In this document: piece after piece, positions 7,900 to 63,880 of the stretch
How the letters are laid out: the number at the start of each line of letters is the position of its first letter
Numbering within the stretch: position 1 is the stretch's first letter
IMG/VR virus record: IMGVR_UViG_3300048623_000062
Location: 1 to 64,000 of that record
Direction: 5' to 3' (one strand)
Source: a virus
Taxonomy: Duplodnaviria > Caudoviricetes
Length of the DNA: 64,000 nucleotides
The notes under the pieces: generated by a model
The model's input: the letters and a program-made list of their open reading frames with translations, nothing else
Told to the model about the DNA's origin: nothing
The model's database searches: none
Made by a program: the position numbers and the translations under genes

Positions 7900-7986
7900 C
7901 TCAGACCTCAGATAGTGGTGGTTCGCAATCGTGACGTCGCCGGGGTCAACGCGACGGTCGGGGCTGTCAGGTCGCCGCGATGACCT

Positions 7987-8355
7987 CTAGCCGTCGCCGT
8001 AGCCGTCGCCGTCGCCGTCGCCGGAGCCGGAGCCGTCGCCGTAGCCGTAGCCGGAGCCGGAGCCGTAGCCGGAGCCGTCGCCGTAGCCGTAGCCGGAGCC
8101 GTAGCCGGAGCCGTCGCCGTCGCCGTAGCCGGAGCCGGAGCCGTAGCCGTCGCCGTCGCCGGAGCCGGAGCCGTAGCCGGAGCCGGAGCCGGAGCCGTAG
8201 CCGGAGCCGTAGCCGTAGCCGGAGCCGTCGCCGTAGCCGTAGCCGGAGCCGTAGCCGGAGCCGTCGCCGTAGCCGGAGCCGTCGCCGTCGCCGTAGCCGG
8301 AGCCGTAGCCGTCGCCGTCGCCGGAGCCGGAGCCGTAGCCGGACTCAGCCTTCAC
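7987..8355 (-). CDS. Gly-Tyr-Ser-Asp low-complexity repeat protein (GYGSGSGDG)
   Basis: GTG at 8355 overlapping upstream gene end; hexanucleotide-type repeats 7990-8340. Confidence 0.65.
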   Translation of the reverse strand: MKAESGYGSGSGDGDGYGSGYGDGDGSGYGDGSGYGSGYGYGDGSGYGYGSGYGSGSGSGYGSGSGDGDGYGSGSGYGDGDGSGYGSGYGYGDGSGYGSGSGYGYGDGSGSGDGDGDGYGDG

Positions 8356-8653
8356 TGGTCTCGATCTTCGAGAAGTTCGAGATCGCCTCTGGGGTGCAGT
8401 CCAGAACGTTGACAATGCCGGTGAGTAGTACGCTCGGCGCCGCAGCTCCGACACGAGAATTCTTCGCATTCGGACCACATGGACCATACGCGGCCAACGA
8501 CGTGATGCCGCCAGTACGTCCGTACCATTTTGCGATGTGCTGGCAGTTCAGCATCCGAACGCTCTTGGTTGCGACGATCTCATTGTCGTCAGCTTCGATC
8601 TGGCCGAAGTAGAGGCCGTAATTCTGGTTACCAACAATCACATACCGCTTCAT
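8345..8653 (-). CDS. Phage hypothetical protein usually found next to GDGYG-repeat ORFs (in-frame extension to 8818 possible)
   Basis: MKRYVIV...GLYFG...VNVLDCTPEAI; AAGGA RBS before ATG at 8653. Confidence 0.6.
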   Translation of the reverse strand: MKRYVIVGNQNYGLYFGQIEADDNEIVATKSVRMLNCQHIAKWYGRTGGITSLAAYGPCGPNAKNSRVGAAAPSVLLTGIVNVLDCTPEAISNFSKIETSEG

Positions 8654-16800: not shown

Positions 16801-19632
16801 TCACGCCACGCCGAAGTTGAACACCATCGCCTTGCCGTCGCCGCCAGCAACCCCGTTTGATCCTCCGCCGTTACCGGCTCCGGCCGCGCCGCCGGCCACG
16901 CTGGTCGTCGCCGCAGTACCACCGCCCACCGCGTGGCAGATGTACCCACCGCCGCCGCCACCACCACCGCCAGCGCCGACCCCAGCGTTGCCACCGGCGC
17001 CGCCCGCGGCGGTCAGGAGCACGTTGGAGGGGTTGGTGACCGTGCGGGCCATGACCACAAGGTATCCACCGCCACCACCGCCACCGCCGCCGTTTGAGAC
17101 TCCGGTCACGCCAGCGCCCGAGGCGCCGCCTGCGCCGCCGGAGATCGAGGCGGTATTGGATGTGCCGAGACGCGCGACCTGGGCTGCGGGGAGGTTGTTG
17201 ATGCCACCGACCGAGACGGGGATCAGGTTGGTGATGCCGCCGCCGGTCGCGCCGGTATTGCCGCTGCTCGAGGCGCCCGAGTTGCCGCCGGTACCAGGGC
17301 GGAACGCCGTGGGGGCATTGTTGGTGTCCCCGCCGTTCTGGCCGTTGTTCTGGAGGCCATCGGAGCCGCCACCGCTGAAGCTGTTCAGCGAACCTTCGGT
17401 GCCAAGAAAGCCGACGCCCCCGGTGCTGCCGGATGCGTCGTTGCCCTTGCGCGAGATCGTGAAGGTGCCGCTTCCGGGACCAACGAGCGCGGTCCGACAG
17501 AAGATCCGGAATCCCGCCGAATCGAGCGTCACGCTTGAAGATCCGGTGAGCGTGTCATAGAACATGTCGCGCGTGAGCGTGGAGGCGGCGGTGACGCTGA
17601 CGTTGCCGTCGGAGCCATCTCCGAAGTACCCGCCGACGAGAGTCGGCGTTGCAGGTACGGACGCGGTGACCGTCGATCCGCTCATGCCGAACGAGACGCC
17701 GTTGGCGTTCGAGAACACCACCGTGCCGGCGGACTGGCTCGACCCGGCGGCGCTGAGCGCCACGCCACCGCCACCGGCGGCGGTGGCGGAGAACGACGCG
17801 GTCACGATATTGTTGCTCATCCCGAACGTGATGTTGTTCGAGTTCGAGAACACGACCGTGCCGGCCGTCGCCATCGTCGATCCGGCCGAGATCGCATTCG
17901 GCCCCACGCCCACCGCCGATGCGGTGATGGTCGAGCCCGACAGGCCGAACGAGACGCCGTTCGAGTTCGAGAACACCACGGTGCCAGCGCCGACCGACGC
18001 CGCACCGGCGCTGATCGCCGCCGGTCCAGTCGACTGGCTGTAGCTCGCGGTGACGATGGACGAGCCGGACATGCCGAACGAGACGCCGTTCGAGTTCGAG
18101 AACACGACGGTTCCCGCCGTCGCGGTCTGCGTGCCGGCCGCGATCGCCGCGGCGCTGGCGCCGGCCGCGCTGGCCGTGACGATCGATCCGTTCATGCCGA
18201 ACGAGACGTTGTTCGAATTCGAGAACACCACCGTGCCGCTGGTGAGCGTCGAGGCGCCCGCCTGGACGCCGATCGACGGCCGCACGGATGCCGTCAAGGT
18301 GGAGTTGCTGAGGCCCCAGGTGACGCCGTTCGAGTTGGCGTACGACACGGTGCCTGCGGACTGCGTGGCCGTCCCGGCAATGACAGCGTCGAGGCCGAGC
18401 TTGGAGGCGGTCACCGTCGATCCGCTGAGGCCGAACGAGACCCCGTTCGAGTTCGAGAACACGACCGTGCCAGCGCCGACCGAGGCGGTGCCGGCGCTGA
18501 TCGCCGCCGGTCCAGTCGACTGGCTGTAGCTCGCGGTGACGATGGACGAGCCGGACATGCCGAACGAGACGCCGTTCGAGTTCGAGAACACGACGGTTCC
18601 CGCCGTCGCGGTCTGCGTGCCGGCCGCGATCGCAGTGGGGCCGAGCCGCGAGGCGGTGAGGACGCCGTTCGACAACCCGAACGTGATGTTGTTGCTGTTC
18701 GAGATCGTGATCACGCCGGTGGTGACCAGCGACGCGCTCGCGCTGATGCCGATGCCCGACGCGGTGCCGCCGGCGGTCTGCGCGGTCGCGGTGATCACCG
18801 AGCCGGACATACCGAACGAGACGTTGTTCGAGTTCGAAAACACGATGGTGCCCGACGTTCCGGTCGACCCGGCCGCCGCGATCCCCGATGGACCGTCGTG
18901 GCTCGCGGTGACGATGGACGACCCCGACATCCCGAACGTGACGCCGTTCGAGTTCGAGAACACCACCGTGCCGGTCGTCGCAAGTTGAGACCCCGCGGAG
19001 ATCGCCACCGCGCCCGAGGTGCCAGCGTCCTCGGATGTCGTCGTGAAGCCGACGTTGACCAGCGGGGTGCCCGGGTTGTTCACGGGGACGCCCGAGCGCC
19101 GCACGCGCATGAACTTCGCGACGATGACGCCGCTCGCGAGGCGGTTCGACCCCTGGAACTGGAACGGCTGCGCCCAGTCGGTCGTGCCGTCGACCGAGAT
19201 CTCGACGATCAGCACGCCGCCGAAGGCCCCACCGACCTGCACCGTCTTGAACAGCCCGATGTCCGCGCTGACGTCCACGGACGCGCCCACGCCGTTCCCC
19301 GCGGGGACGGTCAGCGACGCGAACGTGGTGCCGGAGGTCGTGCCGCCGACGTTCACCGTGCTCGTGCCGCCGACGTTCACGTTGTAGCCGGAGACGCGCA
19401 CGCGCAGGAACCGCGCCGCGACGTTGATGGTCGTCGAGCCGCTGTTCTGGATGCTGGCCACCGCCTGCCATCCACCACCCTGGGCGGCGTCGTTGTTGAG
19501 CTCGATGGTGATGGTGCACAGCGCGGTGCCTACGACCGTGATCGTCTTGGTGGCCCCGAACGTCGAGACATCCGTGGCGGCGCCGACGCCGTTGCCGAGC
19601 GGTACTGTGAGAGAAACGAATTGATTCGCCAT
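16801..19632 (-). CDS. Long fibre/spike protein with 11 GTVVFSNSNGVSFG repeats and Gly-rich C-terminal domain
   Basis: Repeats counted in translation; YFGDGSDG..LTRDMFY Gly-rich domain seen in virion fibres. Confidence 0.75.
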   Translation of the reverse strand: MANQFVSLTVPLGNGVGAATDVSTFGATKTITVVGTALCTITIELNNDAAQGGGWQAVASIQNSGSTTINVAARFLRVRVSGYNVNVGGTSTVNVGGTTSGTTFASLTVPAGNGVGASVDVSADIGLFKTVQVGGAFGGVLIVEISVDGTTDWAQPFQFQGSNRLASGVIVAKFMRVRRSGVPVNNPGTPLVNVGFTTTSEDAGTSGAVAISAGSQLATTGTVVFSNSNGVTFGMSGSSIVTASHDGPSGIAAAGSTGTSGTIVFSNSNNVSFGMSGSVITATAQTAGGTASGIGISASASLVTTGVITISNSNNITFGLSNGVLTASRLGPTAIAAGTQTATAGTVVFSNSNGVSFGMSGSSIVTASYSQSTGPAAISAGTASVGAGTVVFSNSNGVSFGLSGSTVTASKLGLDAVIAGTATQSAGTVSYANSNGVTWGLSNSTLTASVRPSIGVQAGASTLTSGTVVFSNSNNVSFGMNGSIVTASAAGASAAAIAAGTQTATAGTVVFSNSNGVSFGMSGSSIVTASYSQSTGPAAISAGAASVGAGTVVFSNSNGVSFGLSGSTITASAVGVGPNAISAGSTMATAGTVVFSNSNNITFGMSNNIVTASFSATAAGGGGVALSAAGSSQSAGTVVFSNANGVSFGMSGSTVTASVPATPTLVGGYFGDGSDGNVSVTAASTLTRDMFYDTLTGSSSVTLDSAGFRIFCRTALVGPGSGTFTISRKGNDASGSTGGVGFLGTEGSLNSFSGGGSDGLQNNGQNGGDTNNAPTAFRPGTGGNSGASSSGNTGATGGGITNLIPVSVGGINNLPAAQVARLGTSNTASISGGAGGASGAGVTGVSNGGGGGGGGGYLVVMARTVTNPSNVLLTAAGGAGGNAGVGAGGGGGGGGGYICHAVGGGTAATTSVAGGAAGAGNGGGSNGVAGGDGKAMVFNFGVA
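17962..18632. repeat. Near-identical ~180 bp internal duplication in fibre gene (offset 486 bp)
   Basis: Copies at about 17962-18145 and 18449-18632. Confidence 0.8.
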
Positions 19633-38849: not shown

Positions 38850-39561
38850 TTGTCTCCCTGGTGCTCGGTAGCGGTTCGTTGTTGAGGATCATCTCGCGAA
38901 TGCGCGCTCGCGCGTGCGCGGCAGCTGCGGCGTGGGCGGCGTTGTGACTCGAGTTGTGAAATTTCCGGTCCGGGAACTGATCGCACCAGGCGCACCGCAT
39001 GGACGGCGCATCGTAGTCATCGTCTCGACCAGATATCGTCGACGAGAACGTGCAGAGCGCGAATTCCGCCTCGACCTGTGCGTCGAGAATCAGCCGCTCC
39101 GCTTCCTCGGCTTCACGCATGGCTTTGCGCCGGCGCCCCTCCCACCGCGCGACCTGGTACGCAAAGTCACCCCCATCCTTGGACTGCCGGTAGGCGCGTT
39201 CGCGCTTCCTGCGCCCCTCGTCCGGCGCCACCGGTTCCCACCGGTTGCACTCCGTTACCGGCATCACCCCCAGCGGCATCTCGATGCCAGTGTCCGGGTA
39301 GCAATAGCGGTGCGTCTCGGCGTGGAACGGCACTGGGGGCTGGTAGGTGCCCCCCCCAACCCCCGGAACGATCACAGGTAGGCGCCTCACTTTGGGGGGT
39401 TCGGCGTCGACCTGAATGCGGAACCGGTGGTAGTGGCGGCATGGCCCCGCCTCGCACAGGCTCGGGCGAGGGTCCGGGGGCGGACGCTGGGCCGTGAGCG
39501 ACGCAGGAGCGTCGAGGTCGACCCCGTGGGAGGGGTCCGTGGGGGCGGTAATTGTGCGCAT
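38824..39561 (-). CDS. Cys/His-rich hypothetical protein
   Basis: CEAGPCRHYH, CAWC motifs; first gene of left arm. Confidence 0.55.
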   Translation of the reverse strand: MRTITAPTDPSHGVDLDAPASLTAQRPPPDPRPSLCEAGPCRHYHRFRIQVDAEPPKVRRLPVIVPGVGGGTYQPPVPFHAETHRYCYPDTGIEMPLGVMPVTECNRWEPVAPDEGRRKRERAYRQSKDGGDFAYQVARWEGRRRKAMREAEEAERLILDAQVEAEFALCTFSSTISGRDDDYDAPSMRCAWCDQFPDRKFHNSSHNAAHAAAAAHARARIREMILNNEPLPSTRETNEHRTTEE

Positions 39562-39583
39562 GCCGCATCATGCCAGTCTCATG

Positions 39584-39784
39584 CGGGGTTTCCGTGGGAC
39601 GAGTGTGGGTTTTCCGTGGGTTTTCCAAGCCCCAGATCTGGGTACCTGGAGCCCCAGGGAGATCTCCGACCCCACCCTGTAGCGTAGGGACGCCTCACCC
39701 AAGCACTGAAAACCCTCTAGGAAACCCTCTGAGTGGTGAAATCCGCCCGGTCTGGTGTGTCCAAAAGTCGACAGTTCACCACTC
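39584..39784. promoter_or_regulatory. Repeat-rich control region at main strand-divergence point
   Basis: GGGTTT(T)CC x3 (39584-39626), inverted G(A)AAACCC x2 (39708-39728), 10-bp IR GAGTGGTGAA/TTCACCACTC (39731-39784). Confidence 0.6.
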
Positions 39785-39828
39785 CGGAGTGGCCGAGCGG
39801 CGCGTTAACCCCGGTCGTCTCGTCGATC

Positions 39829-39841
39829 TTGCCACTGGCAA
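39829..39841. repeat. Dispersed palindrome copy (intergenic)
   Basis: cTTGCCACTGGCAAg. Confidence 0.9.
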
Positions 39842-39890
39842 GGCGTTCGCATTACTTCTGGGAGTCGGGCGGTTGTCGCCTGGCCCTGAC

Positions 39891-39923
39891 ACCGCCCCTT
39901 GGGGGAAGGAGAGTTCTGAGATG
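39891..39923 (+). repeat. Early-region element family A, partial copy (3' part)
   Basis: ACCGCCCCTTGGGGGAAGGAG..TTCTGAGATG. Confidence 0.8.
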
Positions 39924-40088
39924 AGCCGAAAATTCTACAAGGACAATGGTCGCGCAGAGATGTCGGCGCGGATCGCCGGTGGGGGCGGCTGGTGGCTATC
40001 CGACTGCCCATATACCGGATGGCGCCGCGAAGCCTGGCAGGCTGGCGCATGGTCCGCCATGCAGTCGGCGCGAAAGGCTGGAAAGTAG
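39921..40088 (+). CDS. Small early protein (55 aa, not in ORF track)
   Basis: AAGGAG RBS; MSRKFYKDNGRAEM... Confidence 0.55.
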   Translation: MSRKFYKDNGRAEMSARIAGGGGWWLSDCPYTGWRREAWQAGAWSAMQSARKAGK

Positions 40089-40337
40089 ATGCGCGCCATC
40101 CTCCTAGGCGTTCTCCTGTCGGCATGCGCCGTAGAGGCGCCCGAACCCGCCCCGGCGCCCGAGGCCAGTGCGTTCCCGTTGCCGCGGTGCAAGACGACGC
40201 ACTGCACCACGGTGGAGTGCACGGACGACAGCGGCGTGTGCACATGCCACTGGCCACCGGCGTACGACATTCTCTGTGAGGGTGTCGAGGGTGACGCGAT
40301 GGGCGATGGCCACGACCACACTCACGGTGCGCCGTGA
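40089..40337 (+). CDS. Cys-rich lipoprotein-like protein
   Basis: Signal with LSAC lipobox; HCTTV.C...CTCHWPPA.DI.C. Confidence 0.65.
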   Translation: MRAILLGVLLSACAVEAPEPAPAPEASAFPLPRCKTTHCTTVECTDDSGVCTCHWPPAYDILCEGVEGDAMGDGHDHTHGAP

Positions 40338-40510
40338 ACGCGAAACAGGCGCGGTACGCCGCGCAACTACTCAGCACCACGCTCAAGACGCGGGCCGCAC
40401 TTGCGGCGAGGCCCTGGACGGTCAAGCTGGACGGGCGGTTCTACGGTCGCTACGCCTCCGAGGGAGAGGCACGCGCCAAGGCGGACGAGATTGGCGGAAC
40501 AACTCCGTAG
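40334..40510 (+). CDS. Small early protein
   Basis: GTG overlaps upstream TGA; manual translation 58 aa. Confidence 0.5.
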   Translation: MNAKQARYAAQLLSTTLKTRAALAARPWTVKLDGRFYGRYASEGEARAKADEIGGTTP

Positions 40511-40609
40511 GGGGTACAGATTCGCCAGGGTCGGCCGACCCACCCTGACGAGCCGATACTGCTACCGAGCCACACCGCACCGCCCCTTGGGGGAAGGAGT
40601 TCTGAGATG
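40501..40609 (+). repeat. Early-region element family A, full copy
   Basis: AACTCCGTAGGGGGTACAG-hairpin-GAGCCGATACTGCTACCGAGC...CCCCTTGGGGGAAGGAGTTCTGAGATG. Confidence 0.9.
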
Positions 40610-40825
40610 AGCAAGAAATTCGCACCAGGGATGAAGGTTCGCTTCACTGCGAAGTTCCTTCGAAACACCGGGTCGTACACTGGCAGTGCGGGGCTTGACC
40701 GGTGGGTCGTTCAGCCGTGCGACTGCAGCCTGTGCGGCACTGGCGACTTCGTCGCCACCGACGAGTCCAGCGACTACGGTGGACAGCGTCACATCAACGT
40801 TGACAACCTGCAGGCAGTACGCTGA
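40607..40825 (+). CDS. Small SH3-like early protein
   Basis: FAPGMKVRF...; RBS inside repeat. Confidence 0.65.
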   Translation: MSKKFAPGMKVRFTAKFLRNTGSYTGSAGLDRWVVQPCDCSLCGTGDFVATDESSDYGGQRHINVDNLQAVR

Positions 40826-41076
40826 TGTACGTCAGCGTCTACTGCAACGAAGGAATGGATAGCGGGTTGGTGTACCTTCTCAACGAGCGGACATTCGCCG
40901 ATCAGGTTGCGGATGAGAGGGAGGCCACGATCGCCGAGCCTGACGGATACATTCCCAACTGCTGCGGGGATCTCCGTGTGGAGTTCACCGACCGCGTTCC
41001 CCACGTCATCGGTGAACGATACCAGGGCAGCACGTGCATTTGGTCCGGGGCCTCGTTTTACTTCGAGGGCCGCTAA
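40825..41076 (+). CDS. Early hypothetical protein
   Basis: TGATG coupling. Confidence 0.55.
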   Translation: MYVSVYCNEGMDSGLVYLLNERTFADQVADEREATIAEPDGYIPNCCGDLRVEFTDRVPHVIGERYQGSTCIWSGASFYFEGR

Positions 41077-41080
41077 GAAA

Positions 41081-41344
41081 ATGCGTCGCGCCGTCATCCT
41101 GCAACTCGTCGAGGGAGTGCGCGTGCTGCCGTCGGTGGGGATCCGTAGGCACCGGATCACCCTGACGCACCGCCCGACCCTCCGTCGCCTTACCCTGCCT
41201 CGCCCCAGCGTGGTTGTTGGTCCGGCCATCTACGACTCTCGCGTAGACCCTCCGAGGTTTTCGCACTGGTCGGCCGTGGCCACCCTGCTTCTCCTGACGG
41301 TGCTTTGCGCATGCGTCGGGTTTGTTGAGTTACCCCACAGGTAA
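41081..41344 (+). CDS. Early protein with C-terminal TM
   Basis: ATG at 41081; AVATLLLLTVLCACVG. Confidence 0.5.
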   Translation: MRRAVILQLVEGVRVLPSVGIRRHRITLTHRPTLRRLTLPRPSVVVGPAIYDSRVDPPRFSHWSAVATLLLLTVLCACVGFVELPHR

Positions 41345-41505
41345 CTCTACGGCGATGCTCCCTGGCCGAACTAGAGAGCATGAGCCGCAAAGCACACCAG
41401 CCTACCCTCCCAATTCTGCCGTCAGACATTGGTCGCCGGACACCAGAGTTAGACCTCGCGGTCTGCTACTACCACCAAACCCGGACTTTCCACAGGACGC
41501 CAATC

Positions 41506-41766
41506 ATGACATCGAACGAATACCACGAAGCACGGATACGTGAGTTCGGCGCCGAATGGTTGGGCAGGTTGGCACGTGAGCAGCACACCCAGGACGCTAT
41601 TAAACCGTGGGTCGTACTTGCGTACAAGCGTAACGTGCGTAACGTGCGTGATTTCGCCATCGTGGCTGGCTACAACCGCTGGACTGGCGAGAGCATCCAC
41701 TGGATCGTGCCGTCAATCACCGATGACGAGCGCTACGACATTTCCGCAGCTGTCGAGGTGACCTGA
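41506..41766 (+). CDS. Early hypothetical protein
   Basis: CAGGA RBS before ATG at 41506. Confidence 0.55.
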   Translation: MTSNEYHEARIREFGAEWLGRLAREQHTQDAIKPWVVLAYKRNVRNVRDFAIVAGYNRWTGESIHWIVPSITDDERYDISAAVEVT

Positions 41767-41961
41767 ATGCAGACCTACAAGATCGTCCGCCTGTTTTTCA
41801 ACAGCAATGCAAGGCGCGTCATCCGCAGGCGTCTGACCCTGTCCGAGGCGCAACGGCATTGCCAGGACCCAGAAACATCGTCCAGCACGTGCACCAAGTC
41901 GGCTGGCAAGCGTCGCACGAAATTGCGCGGGCGGTGGTTTGACTCGTATACGAAGGAGTAA
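41767..41961 (+). CDS. Conserved small phage protein
   Basis: YKIVR...LTLSEAQRHCQDPETSS...WFDSY. Confidence 0.65.
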   Translation: MQTYKIVRLFFNSNARRVIRRRLTLSEAQRHCQDPETSSSTCTKSAGKRRTKLRGRWFDSYTKE

Positions 41962-42069
41962 CTCTGTAGGGGGTACAGATTCGCCAGGGTCGGCCGACCC
42001 ACTCTGACGAGCCGATACTGCTACCGAGCCAACACCGCACCGCCCCTTGGGGGAAGGAGTTCTGAAATG
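41960..42069 (+). repeat. Early-region element family A, full copy
   Basis: Near-identical to 40501-40609. Confidence 0.9.
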
Positions 42070-42375
42070 AGCGAGAAATCGACCGAGCAAGATCCGGCCA
42101 TCCTCGTGGCCGAGGGAACCATAGGCGCGAACCGCTGGCGCCAATACTTCGTGATCACGGATCGTCGCTGTGCGATCGTGGAGATGAGCGAAGCGCTCCT
42201 CTGTGGTTGGCGCTTCGCTCGGGTCACTGTCCAGGGTGAGGAAGACTGGCCGATGCCCAAGGCGAAGATTGTGCAGTGGAAATTCGCAAACGGCGACTAC
42301 GCCGTCGCGCCGGACCTAGGCGATTTCAGGAATGCGCTGCTCAAGGTCGCTAGCGCCGGAGCCATCGAGCGATGA
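42067..42375 (+). CDS. Early hypothetical protein
   Basis: RBS inside repeat A. Confidence 0.6.
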   Translation: MSEKSTEQDPAILVAEGTIGANRWRQYFVITDRRCAIVEMSEALLCGWRFARVTVQGEEDWPMPKAKIVQWKFANGDYAVAPDLGDFRNALLKVASAGAIER

Positions 42376-42458
42376 CGTGCTACGTCCATCAGGATCCCCG
42401 CTTGCTGCCACGCAGGCTCGGTCGGCGGTGCGGTGATACCATTCTCGGAGGCGAAGCG

Positions 42459-42692
42459 ATGACTGAGCAGTCACTCGAAGGCGCGCTAGCGGATCTCCAG
42501 TCGGAGCACGATGCCGACGTTGACGCACGGCTTCACGCGGTCGCGTGTGCAATCTCCGAGGAAACCGGATGCCAACCGCTCACGGCCATCCGGTCTATGC
42601 TGCAGAACGCCAAAGGCATCGGCGAGCGTCTGACTCTCTCGACGGAAACGGTCGAGACGTGGTGCCGAGAAGCAGACTTCGACGACGAGTAG
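42459..42692 (+). CDS. Early acidic hypothetical protein
   Basis: GGAGG RBS before ATG at 42459. Confidence 0.55.
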   Translation: MTEQSLEGALADLQSEHDADVDARLHAVACAISEETGCQPLTAIRSMLQNAKGIGERLTLSTETVETWCREADFDDE

Positions 42693-42694
42693 CA

Positions 42695-42790
42695 GGGGCA
42701 TGGCGCCCATCGGTGGCACCGGGGATTGTCTCGGTGCACTGACTGACGCCACGCACAGACACCCCGCTCATGGAGCGGAGGGAGATTGAG
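42695..42790 (+). repeat. Early-region element family B, copy 1
   Basis: GGGGCATGGCGCCCATCGGT-GCACCGGGG...TCTCGGTGC-ACTGACTGACGCCACG, then CCGCTC-ATG-GAGCGG hairpin. Confidence 0.85.
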
Positions 42791-43492
42791 ATGAAGAAAT
42801 TCGCGAACGTTTGCGCCACGCTTGCCACGCTCATGGTTCCCGGGGTCGCTTTGGCCGCCACTGGCGCCGCACCGGAGTCCGGAGTGGCAGGGATCGTCAC
42901 GGGGGTTGCCGGACTGGTAACTGCATGTGCTGGACTGGTGACCGCGATGCGTGGCATCCGGTTGGCACGGCGCGCGGATGCGCGCGCCAAGAGCGCCGTG
43001 AAATGGGCAGACCGACTCGCCAACGCACACGAGGACGGGGTAGTCCTCGTTCTCAGTTACCCTGCGGCACGCGTCTCGTGCCGAGGATTGCTTGAAGCAA
43101 ATGGGTGGCGAATCTGCCATTACCCAGTGACGCAAGCCGAGCTTGATCGCGGTGTATTTTTGCCTGGCCCGCACACGGTCGCTGACGTCTGCGTGGCAGA
43201 CGCGATAGTGGTGGAGGGGCTAAGCGACACCGACATGTCGAAGCTTGCGACCGTGCGGGAATTTCGCGACAATATCCGGCTGGGTGCTGGAGTCGTCATG
43301 TTTACCGCCGGGTCAAACACCCGGTACGACCTGACGGCGTGGGGAGAATGCGATCAGGGGGTGACGACCCCCGTGACCTGTGAGGCCGCTGTCCGCGCCT
43401 CCCTCGCACGCCGAGCGGCTACGGCGCGGCGTCAGGGGATCCGACCGGGGACGCTGTCACAAGCACGTGCATCGCTGCTGAACGCGGACTAG
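42791..43492 (+). CDS. Membrane-anchored protein with Rossmann/receiver-like C-domain
   Basis: Signal/TM segments then VVLVLSY, DAIVVEG, VVMFTAG strands. Confidence 0.6.
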   Translation: MKKFANVCATLATLMVPGVALAATGAAPESGVAGIVTGVAGLVTACAGLVTAMRGIRLARRADARAKSAVKWADRLANAHEDGVVLVLSYPAARVSCRGLLEANGWRICHYPVTQAELDRGVFLPGPHTVADVCVADAIVVEGLSDTDMSKLATVREFRDNIRLGAGVVMFTAGSNTRYDLTAWGECDQGVTTPVTCEAAVRASLARRAATARRQGIRPGTLSQARASLLNAD

Positions 43493-43496
43493 ACAC

Positions 43497-43563
43497 GGGG
43501 GCATGGCGCCCATCGGTAGCACCAAGGGCTGGTCTTTGGTGCGCTGACTGACGCCACGACACA
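43497..43563 (+). repeat. Early-region element family B, copy 2
   Basis: Same flanks; stem GCACCAAGG/CTTTGGTGC shows compensatory changes. Confidence 0.85.
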
Positions 43564-43575
43564 GGGGGTTCTGAG

Positions 43576-44286
43576 ATGACGCTCTACCGCAACGTGTACA
43601 AACTCGGCCGGAAGCTCGACGCAATCATTGCTATTGACGAGGATTCGCCGCTTTCGACTCCGGTCGGCGCCGAATGGGACGACACGATCGATCACGTCAG
43701 GGTCGCCGCTACGGTCATTCTACCGACCGACGTCGCAGGCAATATCCACGTCGACCTGCTAGGTAGCAACGTCGCTGTGGCAGGGGTTCATGTCGCCTAT
43801 ATCTGGGGCGAGCGCTGCCCTGTGGGGCGACAACGGGTAATCCGACTCGGCGCCGAGACGCTTGCCGACGCAGTAGCGGCCGTGCGACAGGGGCTCGAGT
43901 GTGACCTTTCCGAACTCCGTGCACATGTAGGGCGCCGAGACGCACGCATCCAGTTGCGCGAGGGTCGCCTCGCTCACGGGCGAAGCGTAATGCCACCAAG
44001 GCAGGAGTTGGTGGCGCGGTTCGATGTGACGGGCATGGCGCTGGGCGAGGTGTCCGCTCTCGCTGCCGAGGTTGTCGCCCAAGCGGAAGCGTGCGAGGAA
44101 CACCCGGACGTCACTGTCCGGGTTGAGATACCGGACGGAATCACCGATGACGGTGCGTTTCCCGCACACTGCGTCGACGCCACGGAGGCGCCCACCGCCC
44201 GGATCCGCGTTCCGATGGATGCGGTACCCGAGGAGTTGGACGACTGGGGCCAGCCGACCACGCCGCGCTCCGGGCCGTCGGACTGA
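43576..44286 (+). CDS. Early hypothetical protein
   Basis: ORF track; follows element B. Confidence 0.65.
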   Translation: MTLYRNVYKLGRKLDAIIAIDEDSPLSTPVGAEWDDTIDHVRVAATVILPTDVAGNIHVDLLGSNVAVAGVHVAYIWGERCPVGRQRVIRLGAETLADAVAAVRQGLECDLSELRAHVGRRDARIQLREGRLAHGRSVMPPRQELVARFDVTGMALGEVSALAAEVVAQAEACEEHPDVTVRVEIPDGITDDGAFPAHCVDATEAPTARIRVPMDAVPEELDDWGQPTTPRSGPSD

Positions 44287-44309
44287 GTCCAAACCACACA
44301 GGAGATAGC

Positions 44310-44459
44310 ATGCGCTGCGACAAAGAGATCGGCCGGATCGGCCACTGGCACCAATGCGACCGTACTGCTGTGGTCACGGTGGCATCGAAAACCATCCACA
44401 GCCCAACGCTGTTCATGAACTACTGCGACAAACACAAGCCGCTCAAGGATGGCAAGTAG
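44310..44459 (+). CDS. Small Zn-finger protein (49 aa)
   Basis: AGGAG RBS; C...C...YCDKH. Confidence 0.5.
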   Translation: MRCDKEIGRIGHWHQCDRTAVVTVASKTIHSPTLFMNYCDKHKPLKDGK

Positions 44460-44461
44460 CC

Positions 44462-44569
44462 ATGACCGTCCGCGCCGATCCAGCCTACCGCGGCGTCGCC
44501 CTACACCTTGGCCACACTGCCAGGTCGTGGATCGCCGAGCAACGCATTCTCGCTGCCGGCGGTCGGTAG
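44462..44569 (+). CDS. Very small early protein
   Basis: Stop coincides with start of element A copy. Confidence 0.35.
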   Translation: MTVRADPAYRGVALHLGHTARSWIAEQRILAAGGR

Positions 44570-44672
44570 GGGGTACAGGTTTCACCGCGGATGGTCGATT
44601 CATCCCGGTGAGCCGATACTGCTACCGAGCGACAACCGCAACCGCCCTCCTGGAGGGCAAGGAGCCACCATG
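44566..44672 (+). repeat. Early-region element family A, diverged copy
   Basis: Conserved GTAGGGGGTACAG and GAGCCGATACTGCTACCGAGC flanks; different but still paired stems. Confidence 0.85.
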
Positions 44673-45200
44673 GGTAAGAAGGAACTGGAAACCGCCTGCA
44701 TCGAGCTCGGACTCACGATCGAGGCGTTCTTCGTGCCGTACTCGCAGAGCGAGAACGCAAAGATGAGCGCTGGTAGCGATAGGCCGTGGCGCTCGCTAAA
44801 CTGGACGATCGTCTTGCGCTGCAAGGGCAGTGAAATCCTCCGCACCAACTTCGCCGCTGGAGTAGGTCACACGCCGACGTGGGCATCGGGGACGTGGGCA
44901 TCGGGGGCATCGAGTCGCGCCGATGTCGCAGCGGCGATCGCGCGAGAGATCGAGACTGGCCGCGCCAACGGCAAGCCAATCCTCCCAGACCGCATCGACT
45001 GCATCGCCAGCGTGGTCGCCGACGCGGACGTGCTCGACTTCCCCGACTTCGAGGCGTTCGCCGGCGAGCTTGGCTACAACCCCGACAGCCGTCACGCAGA
45101 GCGGATCTACAACGCCTGTGTGAAGACCGCCATAGCACTGCGCGCTGCCGTTGGCGAGGATGGCCTCGCTAAACTCCGCGCGGCCAGGGAGGACTACTAG
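44670..45200 (+). CDS. Conserved phage hypothetical protein
   Basis: AAGGAG RBS; FEAFAGELGYNPDSRHAERIYNAC. Confidence 0.7.
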   Translation: MGKKELETACIELGLTIEAFFVPYSQSENAKMSAGSDRPWRSLNWTIVLRCKGSEILRTNFAAGVGHTPTWASGTWASGASSRADVAAAIAREIETGRANGKPILPDRIDCIASVVADADVLDFPDFEAFAGELGYNPDSRHAERIYNACVKTAIALRAAVGEDGLAKLRAAREDY

Positions 45201-45204
45201 GCTC

Positions 45205-45405
45205 ATGGCGACGCCATACGAGATCGCGAGTGAAGCCCATCGGCAAGCCGCGTCGTTGTACGCTAAGGCGTCGAGCGCCTACCGCGCTCGCACGATCGGC
45301 GACGCCGAATTTCTCGCGGCTAGGGCTGCATTCGATGCGGCCACCGCGGCATTCGATGCGGCGTACGCCGCCGAGGAAGCGCGAGTGCTGGCGGGGGAGT
45401 CATGA
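45205..45405 (+). CDS. Ala-rich helical small protein
   Basis: ATG at 45205. Confidence 0.5.
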   Translation: MATPYEIASEAHRQAASLYAKASSAYRARTIGDAEFLAARAAFDAATAAFDAAYAAEEARVLAGES

Positions 45406-45893
45406 CCGACATTTGCCAGTGGCAAGAGTCGGAAGCGGTGCGCCTCGGCAGCACCGACCAGCAGTTGCTGTACGCCTCTGGGCAACTCCGCGAGGAGGAC
45501 CTCACCTCACTAGCTCGCAATGCGCTGTTCGCTCCGCTCTCTGTCCTGCGTCCTAGGCGCCAGATGTCACCCACCGTCATCCGTCATCCCGTGGACGCGT
45601 CCACCGGCCGGTGGACCTGCGCACCGGACGGCCGACGTTTACCAGTTCGGTGGTCAACTACACTTACGTCCGAGCTTACGGACATGGAGTTAGCCTCTCT
45701 CGCTGCGGTGGAGATCGCAGTCGAGCGCATGAACCTCAATGAGTGGTTGATCCGAGCGCGCGTTTACGCCACGATTCAACCACGGCTTCACCGGGGATAC
45801 TGCACGGCATGCCTGCAGTCCGCCGCTGAAGTATCCGCTCTCGTCTCGGTCTCTTGGGCCGGACGCACCCTTTCCCGGGAGTACGCACTATGA
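45402..45893 (+). CDS. Hypothetical protein
   Basis: GGGGGAG RBS; coupled. Confidence 0.55.
   Translation: MTDICQWQESEAVRLGSTDQQLLYASGQLREEDLTSLARNALFAPLSVLRPRRQMSPTVIRHPVDASTGRWTCAPDGRRLPVRWSTTLTSELTDMELASLAAVEIAVERMNLNEWLIRARVYATIQPRLHRGYCTACLQSAAEVSALVSVSWAGRTLSREYAL
45413..45425. repeat. Dispersed palindrome copy
   Basis: TTGCCAGTGGCAA; inside CDS (CQWQ frame). Confidence 0.9.
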
Positions 45894-46276
45894 GCCGCCA
45901 TACTCGCTCCTACGCGGAGCGCCCCGCATCGCGCGTCGTCGCAATCCCGTCCCTTCGTGCGACCACGGAGATCCCGACGCCACCGCCGCGCCATATTCCA
46001 TCGTCGCTGGACGACTTCGGAGACCAGACCGACCACGGTCACCACTCCATCACCGGGATCCCGGCGATGGAGTGCAACCGGCCCGCACTCGCGCCGTGGG
46101 CCGTCCAGAATGGCGTATTGGCGGTCCTCCAGGCGACCGGGGGGTACGTGTCCGCTCATGACGCCATGGCGGGCTCGGTCGATCACATCGACGAGCTCGA
46201 ACAACTCATCGTGCGCCTCACGGCGCGCGACGCACTTCACATCCCGTTCGTTCAACCGGAAAGGATCCCTTCATGA
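45890..46276 (+). CDS. Hypothetical protein
   Basis: ATG overlaps upstream TGA. Confidence 0.5.
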   Translation: MSRHTRSYAERPASRVVAIPSLRATTEIPTPPPRHIPSSLDDFGDQTDHGHHSITGIPAMECNRPALAPWAVQNGVLAVLQATGGYVSAHDAMAGSVDHIDELEQLIVRLTARDALHIPFVQPERIPS

Positions 46277-46470: not shown

Positions 46471-46498
46471 TCCCTCCCCCTCCTACCAGAGGCGATAA

Positions 46499-46545
46499 CC
46501 CCGGCGCGAATCCCTCCCCCGTTCCCGCGCCGGGGTCTGCAGGAT
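46499..46545 (+). terminator. GC-rich intergenic hairpin (terminator or processing site)
   Basis: CCCCGGCGCG...CGCGCCGGGG inverted repeat; no clear U-tract. Confidence 0.4.
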
Positions 46546-46562
46546 CTGCCCTACCTGCACTG

Positions 46563-47186
46563 ATGAGCCAGGGCCACGGAGATTCTTATATGACCGAGCA
46601 CGCCAACACCGAATACCCCCGCCTCACGGACGATCGCCAGTGGCATCGCTATTCGTACAACATCGGTTCCCCGTACGACGACTGGGCGACCGCGCGCAAG
46701 GATGCACAGCGCGAGCTCGAGGCGTTGCCACTGGGTGCCGCAATCGTCGATGTCCACTGGGCGGGCGGCGACGGCTACCTGGTCGTGCGGCCGACTGTCG
46801 AGGACGCCGAGCGCTACCTCGACGAGTTGGTGGACCGGCACCGCGGAACCCGGCCGAGTCGACATTACGCCGACCTGACCTATCCGGGATGCAGCGAGAG
46901 CAGTGCGGTCGTCCTTGTGGTCAAGGCGGCTATCGACTCTGTACGACGAAACGCGGTCACCGATGACGACCTACGCAAGCTGCAGCAGGAGGCCGAGGCC
47001 GCTCACGATTTTGACACGGTCTATCTCGTCAACTGCGCGCTCGACCTGCCAGGTCCGGCGCCGAAGATGCCACCGGGCGACGCGCGGGCCAAGTTGGAGC
47101 AGCACATCATGGACGTGCGCAAGGCGCGCATGGATGAGGCCAGAAGCAAACTCTCGGACGTTGTCTGCGAGCTCTGGAATTCCTGA
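46563..47186 (+). CDS. Hypothetical protein
   Basis: ORF track; alternative start 46590. Confidence 0.6.
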   Translation: MSQGHGDSYMTEHANTEYPRLTDDRQWHRYSYNIGSPYDDWATARKDAQRELEALPLGAAIVDVHWAGGDGYLVVRPTVEDAERYLDELVDRHRGTRPSRHYADLTYPGCSESSAVVLVVKAAIDSVRRNAVTDDDLRKLQQEAEAAHDFDTVYLVNCALDLPGPAPKMPPGDARAKLEQHIMDVRKARMDEARSKLSDVVCELWNS

Positions 47187-48878: not shown

Positions 48879-49081
48879 CGCCTGACCGGAAACGCGTCAT
48901 CGCGATTCACGTGTTGATGTACATCGCCGACCACATGGAAGCAGTGCTCGACGTGGACCCCGGACCCCATGACCTCGTCGAGACCGACGTCGAGGACGCA
49001 TTCCTCGTCAAAACGTTCAAGCGCGAAGCGGACAAGATACGCAAACGCGCCGACCGACTGCGCAAATCAAGGAGAATCTGA
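48875..49081 (+). CDS. Small hypothetical protein
   Basis: ATGA coupling. Confidence 0.5.
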   Translation: MTPDRKRVIAIHVLMYIADHMEAVLDVDPGPHDLVETDVEDAFLVKTFKREADKIRKRADRLRKSRRI

Positions 49082-49082
49082 G

Positions 49083-49256
49083 ATGCCTACCAAGATTGTC
49101 TCTAACCGCTCGATGACCCCGGCCCCGGACTTTCATATGGCCCTCCTATGGCTCCGTTCCATGGAGTCCATAATCGGCCACTCTGCGGTGGTCCTGCTGT
49201 CGGAGGTCGAGCAGTACGACCTGTTCGGGAACTACCGGCCGTTGGTTAAGGCGTGA
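49083..49256 (+). CDS. Small hypothetical protein
   Basis: AAGGAG RBS. Confidence 0.45.
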   Translation: MPTKIVSNRSMTPAPDFHMALLWLRSMESIIGHSAVVLLSEVEQYDLFGNYRPLVKA

Positions 49257-52770: not shown

Positions 52771-53058
52771 ATGCCATCCACCGCCAGCAAGGTTCTCAAC
52801 ATCTCCGCCGTCGCCCTCGAGGCCGTCGGCGCCGTCGCAGCGCACGCCAAGACAGTGCTCGGCGGCAGCCACACCGTCGACCAGTTGTCGGACATCGCCA
52901 AGATGTTGGTGGCGGTTGTCGAGGCAGTCCGACATGGCCTCGAGACCACCGCGACCGCCGCCGATGTCGAGGCATCCCTGACCTCACTGCTCACCGGCAT
53001 CACGTCGAACAACTCGATCGTCGACGCGATGATTGACGAGAAGTTCAAGCAAGGGTAG
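52771..53058 (+). CDS. Small amphipathic helical protein
   Basis: ORF track, operon context. Confidence 0.55.
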   Translation: MPSTASKVLNISAVALEAVGAVAAHAKTVLGGSHTVDQLSDIAKMLVAVVEAVRHGLETTATAADVEASLTSLLTGITSNNSIVDAMIDEKFKQG

Positions 53059-53219
53059 CCAGCGACCCTGATCGCTGGACGCCATCCGAGTGAAGCCAGA
53101 GGTAGCCCGATGCCTTACCAAACCGGGAACTCCACCTGTCGAGGACCTGGATGTATCGGGACTAGGCGCGCCATGGGGAATCGGGACTTGAGCGGAGTGG
53201 TTGTCGTATACTAGGCGTC

Positions 53220-63593: not shown

Positions 63594-63880
63594 GTCTCGA
63601 GTACGCCATCCGCGAACTCGCCAAGCGCCACAACCGCGACGTCGCGGTGCTACTCGAGGTCTGGAACGAGCGTGCCGCGATCCGCGAGTACCTCTCGCGG
63701 ACGGGCCGGCCTATGGCCGAGCTTGAGGCGCTCCACGAGGTGGAGGCGATGTACAAGATCGGCCAGCACGCGCCGAGACCACAGCAGCCAGCGGCTCCTG
63801 ATGCTGGACTAGGGCCCTCCTCGACACCGCGGCGCCGCGCGGTCCGCAAGCCGCACCCGGGTGACAGCCGTGCTGGATGA
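63590..63880 (+). CDS. Hypothetical protein
   Basis: GTGA coupling; WNERAAIREY...AELEA. Confidence 0.55.
   Translation: MSLEYAIRELAKRHNRDVAVLLEVWNERAAIREYLSRTGRPMAELEALHEVEAMYKIGQHAPRPQQPAAPDAGLGPSSTPRRRAVRKPHPGDSRAG

Follow-up and report, generated by a model that had tools for sequence, protein, structure and literature searches.

We describe here a folded RNA element, which we call B, that is absent from the databases searched and is previously unrecorded, and that lies among the early genes of six viruses. In the explanation that we favor, and to which we attach roughly even confidence on the strength of the sequences, B would be an RNA signal that divides the early mRNA, with its internal loop read by a nuclease or a binding protein, and recombination between its copies would shuffle the genes that lie beside it.

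The virus, the window and the relatives

The virus record from IMG/VR that was examined (G000) has 81,143 bp, is 94% complete and has a G+C content of 65%; the window, by which we mean the whole 64,000-nucleotide stretch that was analyzed, is its first 64 kb. Leftward transcription dominates the left 39 kb, and from about 39.9 kb there is a compact rightward array of small genes, the proteins of which have almost no matches in Pfam or PHROGs, with exceptions that include an endolysin, a tyrosine recombinase and a glycosyltransferase. Of the ten early proteins encoded around B, one, from 44508-45197, belongs to a PHROG family of unknown function, and the others have no significant Pfam or PHROG match. 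In the GenBank phage collection the region 39500-45500 has no DNA match, and a 556-aa protein that adjoins the early region has no protein match. Homologues of this conserved protein, at only 40-44% identity, led to four complete genomes of 75-83 kb (G002 to G005), and the motif of a second repeat family, A, led to G001, a genome of 86,414 bp that ends in terminal repeats and shares about 90% identity with G000. A third relative, P0028, is 84% identical. Protein-guided scans of genome contigs found no prophage relative. The virus is present in three public DNA runs, from soil, root and rhizosphere, and none of the sequencing runs listed is an RNA run that contains it. The window also holds two in-gene tandem repeats, one at 7906-8403 with a 12/18-nt period (GCCGTC/GCCGTA/GCCGGA units) and one at 17635-19013 with units of 117-135 nt, within a 943-aa ORF on the - strand.

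Two copies of B around one gene

B folds into a 5-bp stem (P1), a 4x4 internal loop, a second stem of 5 bp (P2), a one-base bulge and a distal stem of 8-10 bp (P3) that is closed by a terminal loop of 4-8 variable bases. Two copies, B1 and B2, are the only ones in the 81-kb G000, and their locus is arranged as follows.

42372..42692 (+): upstream early gene, 106 aa, with TAG at 42690-42692, from the list of open reading frames
42693..42758 (+), or 42690-42758 with the TAG: B1, covariance model, 83.4 bits
42764..42793 (+): small hairpin CCGCTC-ATG-GAGCGG, then the RBS GGGAG and the ATG of the flanked gene, read from the sequence
42791..43492 (+): flanked gene, 233 aa, with hydrophobic N-terminal segments, absent from G001
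43493..43563 (+): B2, covariance model, 71.8 bits, directly after TAG 43490-43492
43576..44286 (+): downstream gene, 236 aa, preceded by GGGGGTTCTGAGATG

Much of this arrangement had been described in the original prediction, according to which two copies stand right after stop codons and flank the ORF 42791-43492, share the stems TGGCG/CGCCA and TCGGT/(A or G)CTGA and the loops CCCA and CTGA, and have terminal stems that differ yet pair (GCACCGGGG/CTCGGTGC versus GCACCAAGG/CTTTGGTGC); all of these points were confirmed by reading the sequence. In B1 the strands of P1 are 42701-42705 and 42747-42751, 8 nt downstream of the TAG of the 106-aa gene, and within P1 come the loops CCCA and CUGA, P2 (UCGGU/ACUGA), a bulged G and a P3 of 9 bp with a 4-nt loop. 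In B2, P1 pairs 43504-43508 with 43552-43556 and P3 is altered yet paired (GCACCAAGG/CUUUGGUGC); the terminal stems of the two copies are separated by one fully compensatory change and three wobble changes. An 18-mer shared by B1 and B2 occurs twice in the window as against 0.15 times expected, and the two copies score about 1e-19 and 1e-16 as E values (83 and 72 bits), with noise at most 18 bits.

The 106-aa upstream gene has a 95% identical homologue in G001 and no family match in Pfam or PHROG, and the homologue of the 236-aa downstream gene comes directly after the single B of G001. For the flanked 233-aa protein no significant family match was found in Pfam or PHROG, a weak sub-threshold SLATT match (E 0.0097) being the sole family hint; its C-terminal domain is conserved.

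A Logan contig from another study (run X2) covers 42336-43515, that is, B1, the gene and the start of B2, and the succession of B, gene and B is consequently not the artefact of a single assembly. Contigs from the three public DNA runs contain no alternative joint at this locus. In the same runs short-read contigs break exactly at the A and B repeats (40536/40576, 41995/42036 and 43515/43547), so that assembled genomes of such viruses may be collapsed or broken at these points.

Fold, covariation and strand

A covariance model that was first built on three close copies and then iterated (models R1 to R3) yields a family of eight copies in six complete or near-complete genomes, with two copies in G000, one in each of G001, G002, G003 and G004, and two in G005. 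The three-copy model already matched G004 at 45 bits, and the copies of G005, G002 and G003 were recovered by the iterated models. Seven copies score between 62 and 83 bits and the G003 copy 30 bits, with noise at or below 18 bits in the 505 kb searched. Weak model matches at G003 81465, G005 56849 and G004 38355 were rejected as apparently coding sequence with no B fold. A strict pattern of the B core found no match in IMG/VR. A relaxed core gave 14 matches in JGI metagenomes, among which one is real, a twin record of G001; the others do not fold, and their number fits the chance expectation.

In the model-fitted alignment of all eight copies, pairing is kept in 90.8% of cells and both sides have changed at 11 of the 19 pairs; the covariation score is 0.620 versus 0.306 +/- 0.036 for shuffles, none of which (0 of 500) attains it, and versus 0.17 or less with slid partners, and an independent plain MAFFT alignment of seven copies gives 0.591 versus 0.286, these scores being drawn from eight sequences of about four lineages and from two alignments, one of them fitted to the model. 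The expectation of a structured element with real covariation has thus held, homologues having been recovered outside G000 by covariance-model search. The opposite possibility, of a recent duplication that lacks further homologues or covariation, fails because there are eight copies in six genomes and because they covary; B is not merely a recent duplication.

On its 5' side the internal loop reads CCCA in six copies and CCCG and UCCG in one each (those of G002 and G003), and on its 3' side it reads C(U/C/A)GA. The pairs that adjoin the loop are invariant or nearly so, with conserved closing pairs G-C, U-A and C-G, and the conserved unpaired nucleotides of B number only about seven, all of them in this one loop. 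The one-base bulge is paired in G002 and G003.

Wobble cells comprise 18 G.U versus 3 A.C, and pairing stands at 90.8% in the sense direction versus 80.9% in the antisense direction. Since G.U so outnumbers A.C, the fold belongs to the transcribed strand, most simply as RNA. This favors B as a sense-strand RNA rather than a DNA hairpin; of the two forms proposed at the outset, structured RNA or hairpin DNA, the first is supported and the second disfavored. None of the 4227 Rfam models matches B up to E = 5 (searched at 39500-46000), although hammerheads of G005 are recovered by such searches, and Rfam matches were also absent from the early regions of G001 (gathering score only) and of G002 to G004. 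Readings of the loop as a K-turn, a loop E or a twister motif were dropped because the required GA/AG or loop-loop features are absent.

Position and genomic context

Each of the six genomes has B at one locus only, with every copy on the strand of the early genes and about 3.3-6.6 kb away from where the divergent 556-aa gene starts. B starts 5-11 nt past a TAG stop in seven of the eight copies, which are related and not independent observations, and TAG accounts for 31% of stops in G000; the next start codon comes 13-39 nt beyond B. The genes downstream of B, and indeed on either side, are non-homologous between clades, so that B is not tied to a particular gene. The RBS of the gene after B is not sequestered by the fold, and no promoter-like site or U-tract terminator was found on the + strand of 39000-46000. 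A start motif, GGAG(N)TTCTGAGATG, with a TGA immediately ahead of the ATG, is found in front of six genes, among them the gene that follows B2.

39908-39923: start motif
40596-40609: start motif
42056-42069: start motif
43565-43578: start motif
49071-49085: start motif
42780-42793: variant start motif GGGAGATTGAGATG, after B1 and ahead of the flanked gene

In G004 a look-alike of the start motif, GGAGATCTGAGATG, lies just upstream of B (L037 3400-3425, - strand) and opens a mini-ORF of four codons, ATG ACG GCT TCG TGA, which may be the stump of a lost gene.

Gene gain and loss at B

Exactly 42754-43497, comprising the 233-aa gene and one B, is missing from G001, which has a single, hybrid B; this copy agrees with B1 in its 5' part and P3 and with B2 in its 3' flank. 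The gene 42791-43492 is accordingly present in one relative and absent from the other. The word cassette, used in the original prediction because both copies flank one gene, is not supported in the integron sense, there being no GTTRRRY core and the recombinase not being an integron integrase. In the comparison of G002 with G003 the segment made up of B and the leader is the best conserved (89.9% identity, with 71-84% in the flanks), and indels of 248 and 296 nt lie one on each side of it. Gene turnover therefore falls exactly at B in both of the close-pair comparisons (G000/G001 and G002/G003). In G005 two near-identical copies of B enclose two small genes, the repeat extending over the TAG and the final 12 bases of coding sequence ahead of it.

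Homologues of the flanked 233-aa gene number 25 in metagenomes, at 53-73% identity, and some lie on long Logan and ENA contigs. One homologue that was inspected lies in a 156-kb virus with no B beside it, which indicates that the gene travels without B, and it behaves as a mobile accessory gene. To judge from the sequences, such turnover would need no special enzyme, as homologous recombination in an identical 15-nt 3' segment can explain the G001 junction. By analogy, integration and excision of a circle made up of the gene and one B, as in the PeSL cassettes of T4-type phages (PMC2839356), would give both of the observed states.

Other folded elements in the same slot

Family A, of which B was first proposed to be the functional equivalent, occupies a slot like that of B (stop codon, element, RBS), but its loop layout is different and it occurs in G000 and G001 only.

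40505..40600 (+): family A copy 1
41964..42060 (+): family A copy 2
44565..44670 (+): family A copy 3, inner stem changed, pairing kept

Copy 3 has a small hairpin ahead of the RBS, analogous to the one at 42764..42793, and, in a turnover like that at B, the segment 41782-42079, with a 64-aa gene and copy 2 after it, is missing from G001. The family shares the 12-mer CCCTGACGAGCC with one of the hammerhead matches of G005 (the copy at L058 3297: CTGACGAGCC) and is without GAAA and helix III; going by these sequences, it may be a rearranged descendant of a hammerhead, or the likeness may be a coincidence. Hammerhead readings by eye of family A and of the stretch upstream of the L033 homologue were rejected, as the cores are imperfect and Rfam is unsupportive.

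The early operon of the 79-kb G005 has five matches to the Rfam type II hammerhead model RF02276, of which two (44.8 and 40.5 bits) exceed the gathering score of 37 and the other three score 30-32 bits.

L058 3297-3359 (+): hammerhead match
L058 3727-3796 (+): hammerhead match
L058 4156-4228 (+): hammerhead match
L058 6119-6187 (+): hammerhead match
L058 7494-7565 (+): hammerhead match

In four of these five the TAG of the gene before is the visible start of the hammerhead, in the form TAGGCGAAAC (four were read), and the two copies of B in this genome sit between the third and fourth matches. A partial hammerhead duplicate lies at L058 3685-3724. A type II hammerhead-like sequence is also seen in the early operon at 46491-46572 (+) of the window and around 21911 (-) of G001. 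The window sequence has a helix II GGC/GCC, CUGAUGA, a GUC triplet and helices I and III, with GAUAA in place of GAAA; the extra U is conserved in G000 and G001. Rfam leaves this stretch of the window unscored (E > 1), and by its sequence it may be a variant or a dead ribozyme.

Scattered between genes there are, in addition, hairpins of the form GUAG-CCAGCGA-loop-UCGCUGG-AC that resemble Cas12m handles, with the UAG being the upstream stop codon in at least one.

Window 53057-53080 (+): handle-like hairpin
Window 63786-63809 (+): handle-like hairpin
G000 71198-71223 (+): handle-like hairpin
G000 74406-74382 (-): handle-like hairpin

With B, hammerheads and Cas12m-type hairpins all so placed, a slot consisting of a stop codon, a folded RNA and an RBS is filled by several different elements within this group of viruses. 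B is the only one of them common to all six genomes.

Comparison with known systems

[quoted passage not shown] 2011, PMC3088659), and arrays of them around variable prophage genes have been read as a means of processing long transcripts to gene-sized messages (PMC3088659). Like these arrays (RF02276), B is a structured RNA of the sense strand between small early genes; both flank inconstant genes, start at the upstream stop and co-occur in the G005 operon. In contrast to a hammerhead, B has no CUGANGA / GAAA core, no three-helix junction and no Rfam score, and self-cleavage is not predicted for it from any known class.

The promoter-early stem-loop (PeSL) cassettes of T4-type phages (Arbiol et al. 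2010, PMC2839356; PMC4122927) are, like B, conserved repeats between genes, found on either side of orphan genes where the genome is variable, and in both cases the repeats bound indels between close relatives (here G000/G001 and G002/G003). B differs from the PeSLs in having neither a sigma-70-type promoter nor a U-tract terminator (39000-46000, +), in its covariation across distant relatives, and in occupying one locus per genome versus dozens.

Cluster K mycobacteriophages carry start-associated sequences (SAS) and extended SAS (ESAS), of unknown function (Pope et al. 2011, PMC3203893), which share with B a location among early or right-arm genes of a high-GC phage, an imperfect inverted repeat with a variable spacer, and a conserved translation-start motif immediately downstream. 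The ESAS has 17-bp half-sites that lie 4-13 bp apart and the SAS is the 13-bp GGGATAGGAGCCC, where the present viruses have GGAG..TTCTGAGATG. B is a longer hairpin with three helix segments and a conserved internal loop, and has no sequence similarity to the SAS or ESAS.

Like B, the RNase III sites of phage T7 are irregular hairpins between cistrons, some two helical turns long and interrupted by an internal bubble, and the shape of B, with 5 bp, a loop and then 14 bp, is compatible with an irregular RNase III-type hairpin of about 20 bp. The early and late mRNAs of T7 reportedly carry such processing signals, and the cut hairpin stays on the 3' end of the upstream message. What sets B apart is that its loop sequence is kept more strictly than expected of these sites.

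How B may act

The fold, the strand, the position and the company of B favor a role at the RNA level in the early message, and we infer from them RNA processing, a reader of the loop and a route of recombination. B would be a structured RNA that acts in cis within the polycistronic early message of a group of uncultured soil viruses of about 80 kb. The sense strand folds into a hairpin some 50 nt long, in which the conserved part is the 4x4 loop (5' CCC-A/G, 3' C-N-G-A) with the adjoining pairs, the outer and distal stems needing only to pair, and this loop would be read by a trans-acting factor available to all six viruses, such as a host ribonuclease, double-strand-specific or other, or an RNA-binding protein. 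By cutting the message, or by capping the 3' end of its upstream part, B would split a long early transcript into units of one or two genes, a job like the one that hammerheads are thought to do in the G005 operon. Since B is a conserved island among fast-changing genes, homologous recombination between copies, either between co-infecting relatives or through excision and integration of circles made up of a gene and one B, could add or remove the adjacent genes and would produce the cassette-like look. Against a processing signal it can be said that B has one locus per genome, where a mark of general punctuation should recur at many junctions; this suits a specific site such as a terminator, an antiterminator or a protein operator about as well. 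A further point against it is that RNase III-type substrates do not usually need a conserved loop sequence.

That single locus makes a regulatory RNA that is bound but left uncut the main rival, though in our estimate a rather unlikely one; B would then be a terminator that lacks a U-tract, or the target of an antiterminator, and would separate immediate-early from later early genes, or it would be an operator of translation or stability. In keeping with such a site are the similar distances between B and the 556-aa gene across the six genomes (about 3.3-6.6 kb), a conserved loop among variable stems, which is typical of protein-binding RNA sites, and a region without a canonical terminator or promoter. 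There is, however, no U-tract and no alternative fold that overlaps a terminator, the RBS of the next gene is free, and tandem copies around a gene (in G000 and G005) would be odd for a single boundary.

Unlikely, in our view, is the broader proposal, suggested by the sequences, that B might be a new autonomous module for cleaving or processing RNA, as a new small ribozyme or the target of an unknown nuclease, that would be interchangeable with hammerheads and Cas12m handles in cutting early messages and would serve as a portable gene-shuffling joint as well. Its narrower form, in which B would be a self-cleaving ribozyme of a new class that takes the place of hammerheads at some junctions, we consider very doubtful. 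B does occupy the same slot as the hammerhead matches of the G005 operon (TAG, element, next gene), it has conserved unpaired nucleotides and no Rfam match, and the twister-sister, pistol and hatchet ribozymes were discovered through their proximity to known ribozymes (PMC6154101). With about seven conserved unpaired nucleotides in one internal loop, B is nevertheless a simple hairpin that shows no conserved pseudoknot, second loop or evident tertiary contact, and its terminal loops and flanks vary. To our knowledge, the natural self-cleavers have cores more elaborate than this.

A further reading takes B to be a derived guide-RNA handle that would be bound or cut by the virus's own Cas12m. 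G000 does have a gene for a Cas12m homologue, on the - strand at 75069-77030 (E 7e-55 to PDB 23vw), hairpins like the canonical handle (GUAG-stem-loop-stem-AC) do lie between genes, and the A-U ... A-C frame of the inner hairpin of B resembles the A-G ... A-C of the Cas12m2 handle (PMC10442227). Yet the inner hairpin of B has 14 bp and a bulge, where the handle has 6-8 bp and a loop of about 8 nt, the sequence of B differs from that of the canonical GUAGCCAGCGA-type handles of G000, and the complete genomes G002, G003 and G004 carry B without a Cas12m homologue; no significant TNB zinc-ribbon domain was found in these three, with a 13-bit sub-threshold match in a 100-aa ORF of G004. Because three complete genomes have B and lack Cas12m, B is unlikely to depend on a virus-encoded Cas12m, and we rate this reading as highly improbable.

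The least probable of the readings is an attC-like site of single-stranded DNA at which a viral tyrosine recombinase, encoded in all six genomes, would move cassettes of a gene and one B: the two short paired boxes around an unpaired central bubble, the extrahelical base, the variable terminal stem, a structure more conserved than the sequence, a start at the stop codon of an ORF as in many attC sites, and indels of exactly one gene and one B are all shared features, but the GTTRRRY / RYYYAAC core and R-box consensus are absent (P1 being TGGCG/CGCCA or covarying variants), the recombinase reaches 23 bits against a cut-off of 265 for the integron integrase TIGR02249 and has only generic Xer-like matches, the wobbles point to RNA and the 18 G.U would be G.T mismatches as DNA, there are one or two copies per genome and no array with an attI site, another virus has homologues of the flanked gene and no B beside them, and homologous recombination in the 15-nt segment explains the G001 junction equally well.

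Significance

Structured RNAs between phage genes are already known in the form of hammerhead arrays, PeSLs, ESAS and RNase III sites. B is kept by covariation across viruses whose core proteins are about 40% identical, in slots like those of known ribozymes, and it is a cheap and direct test case in a little-known group of viruses. It also illustrates concretely how viral accessory genes can be swapped at a joint provided by a conserved RNA element.
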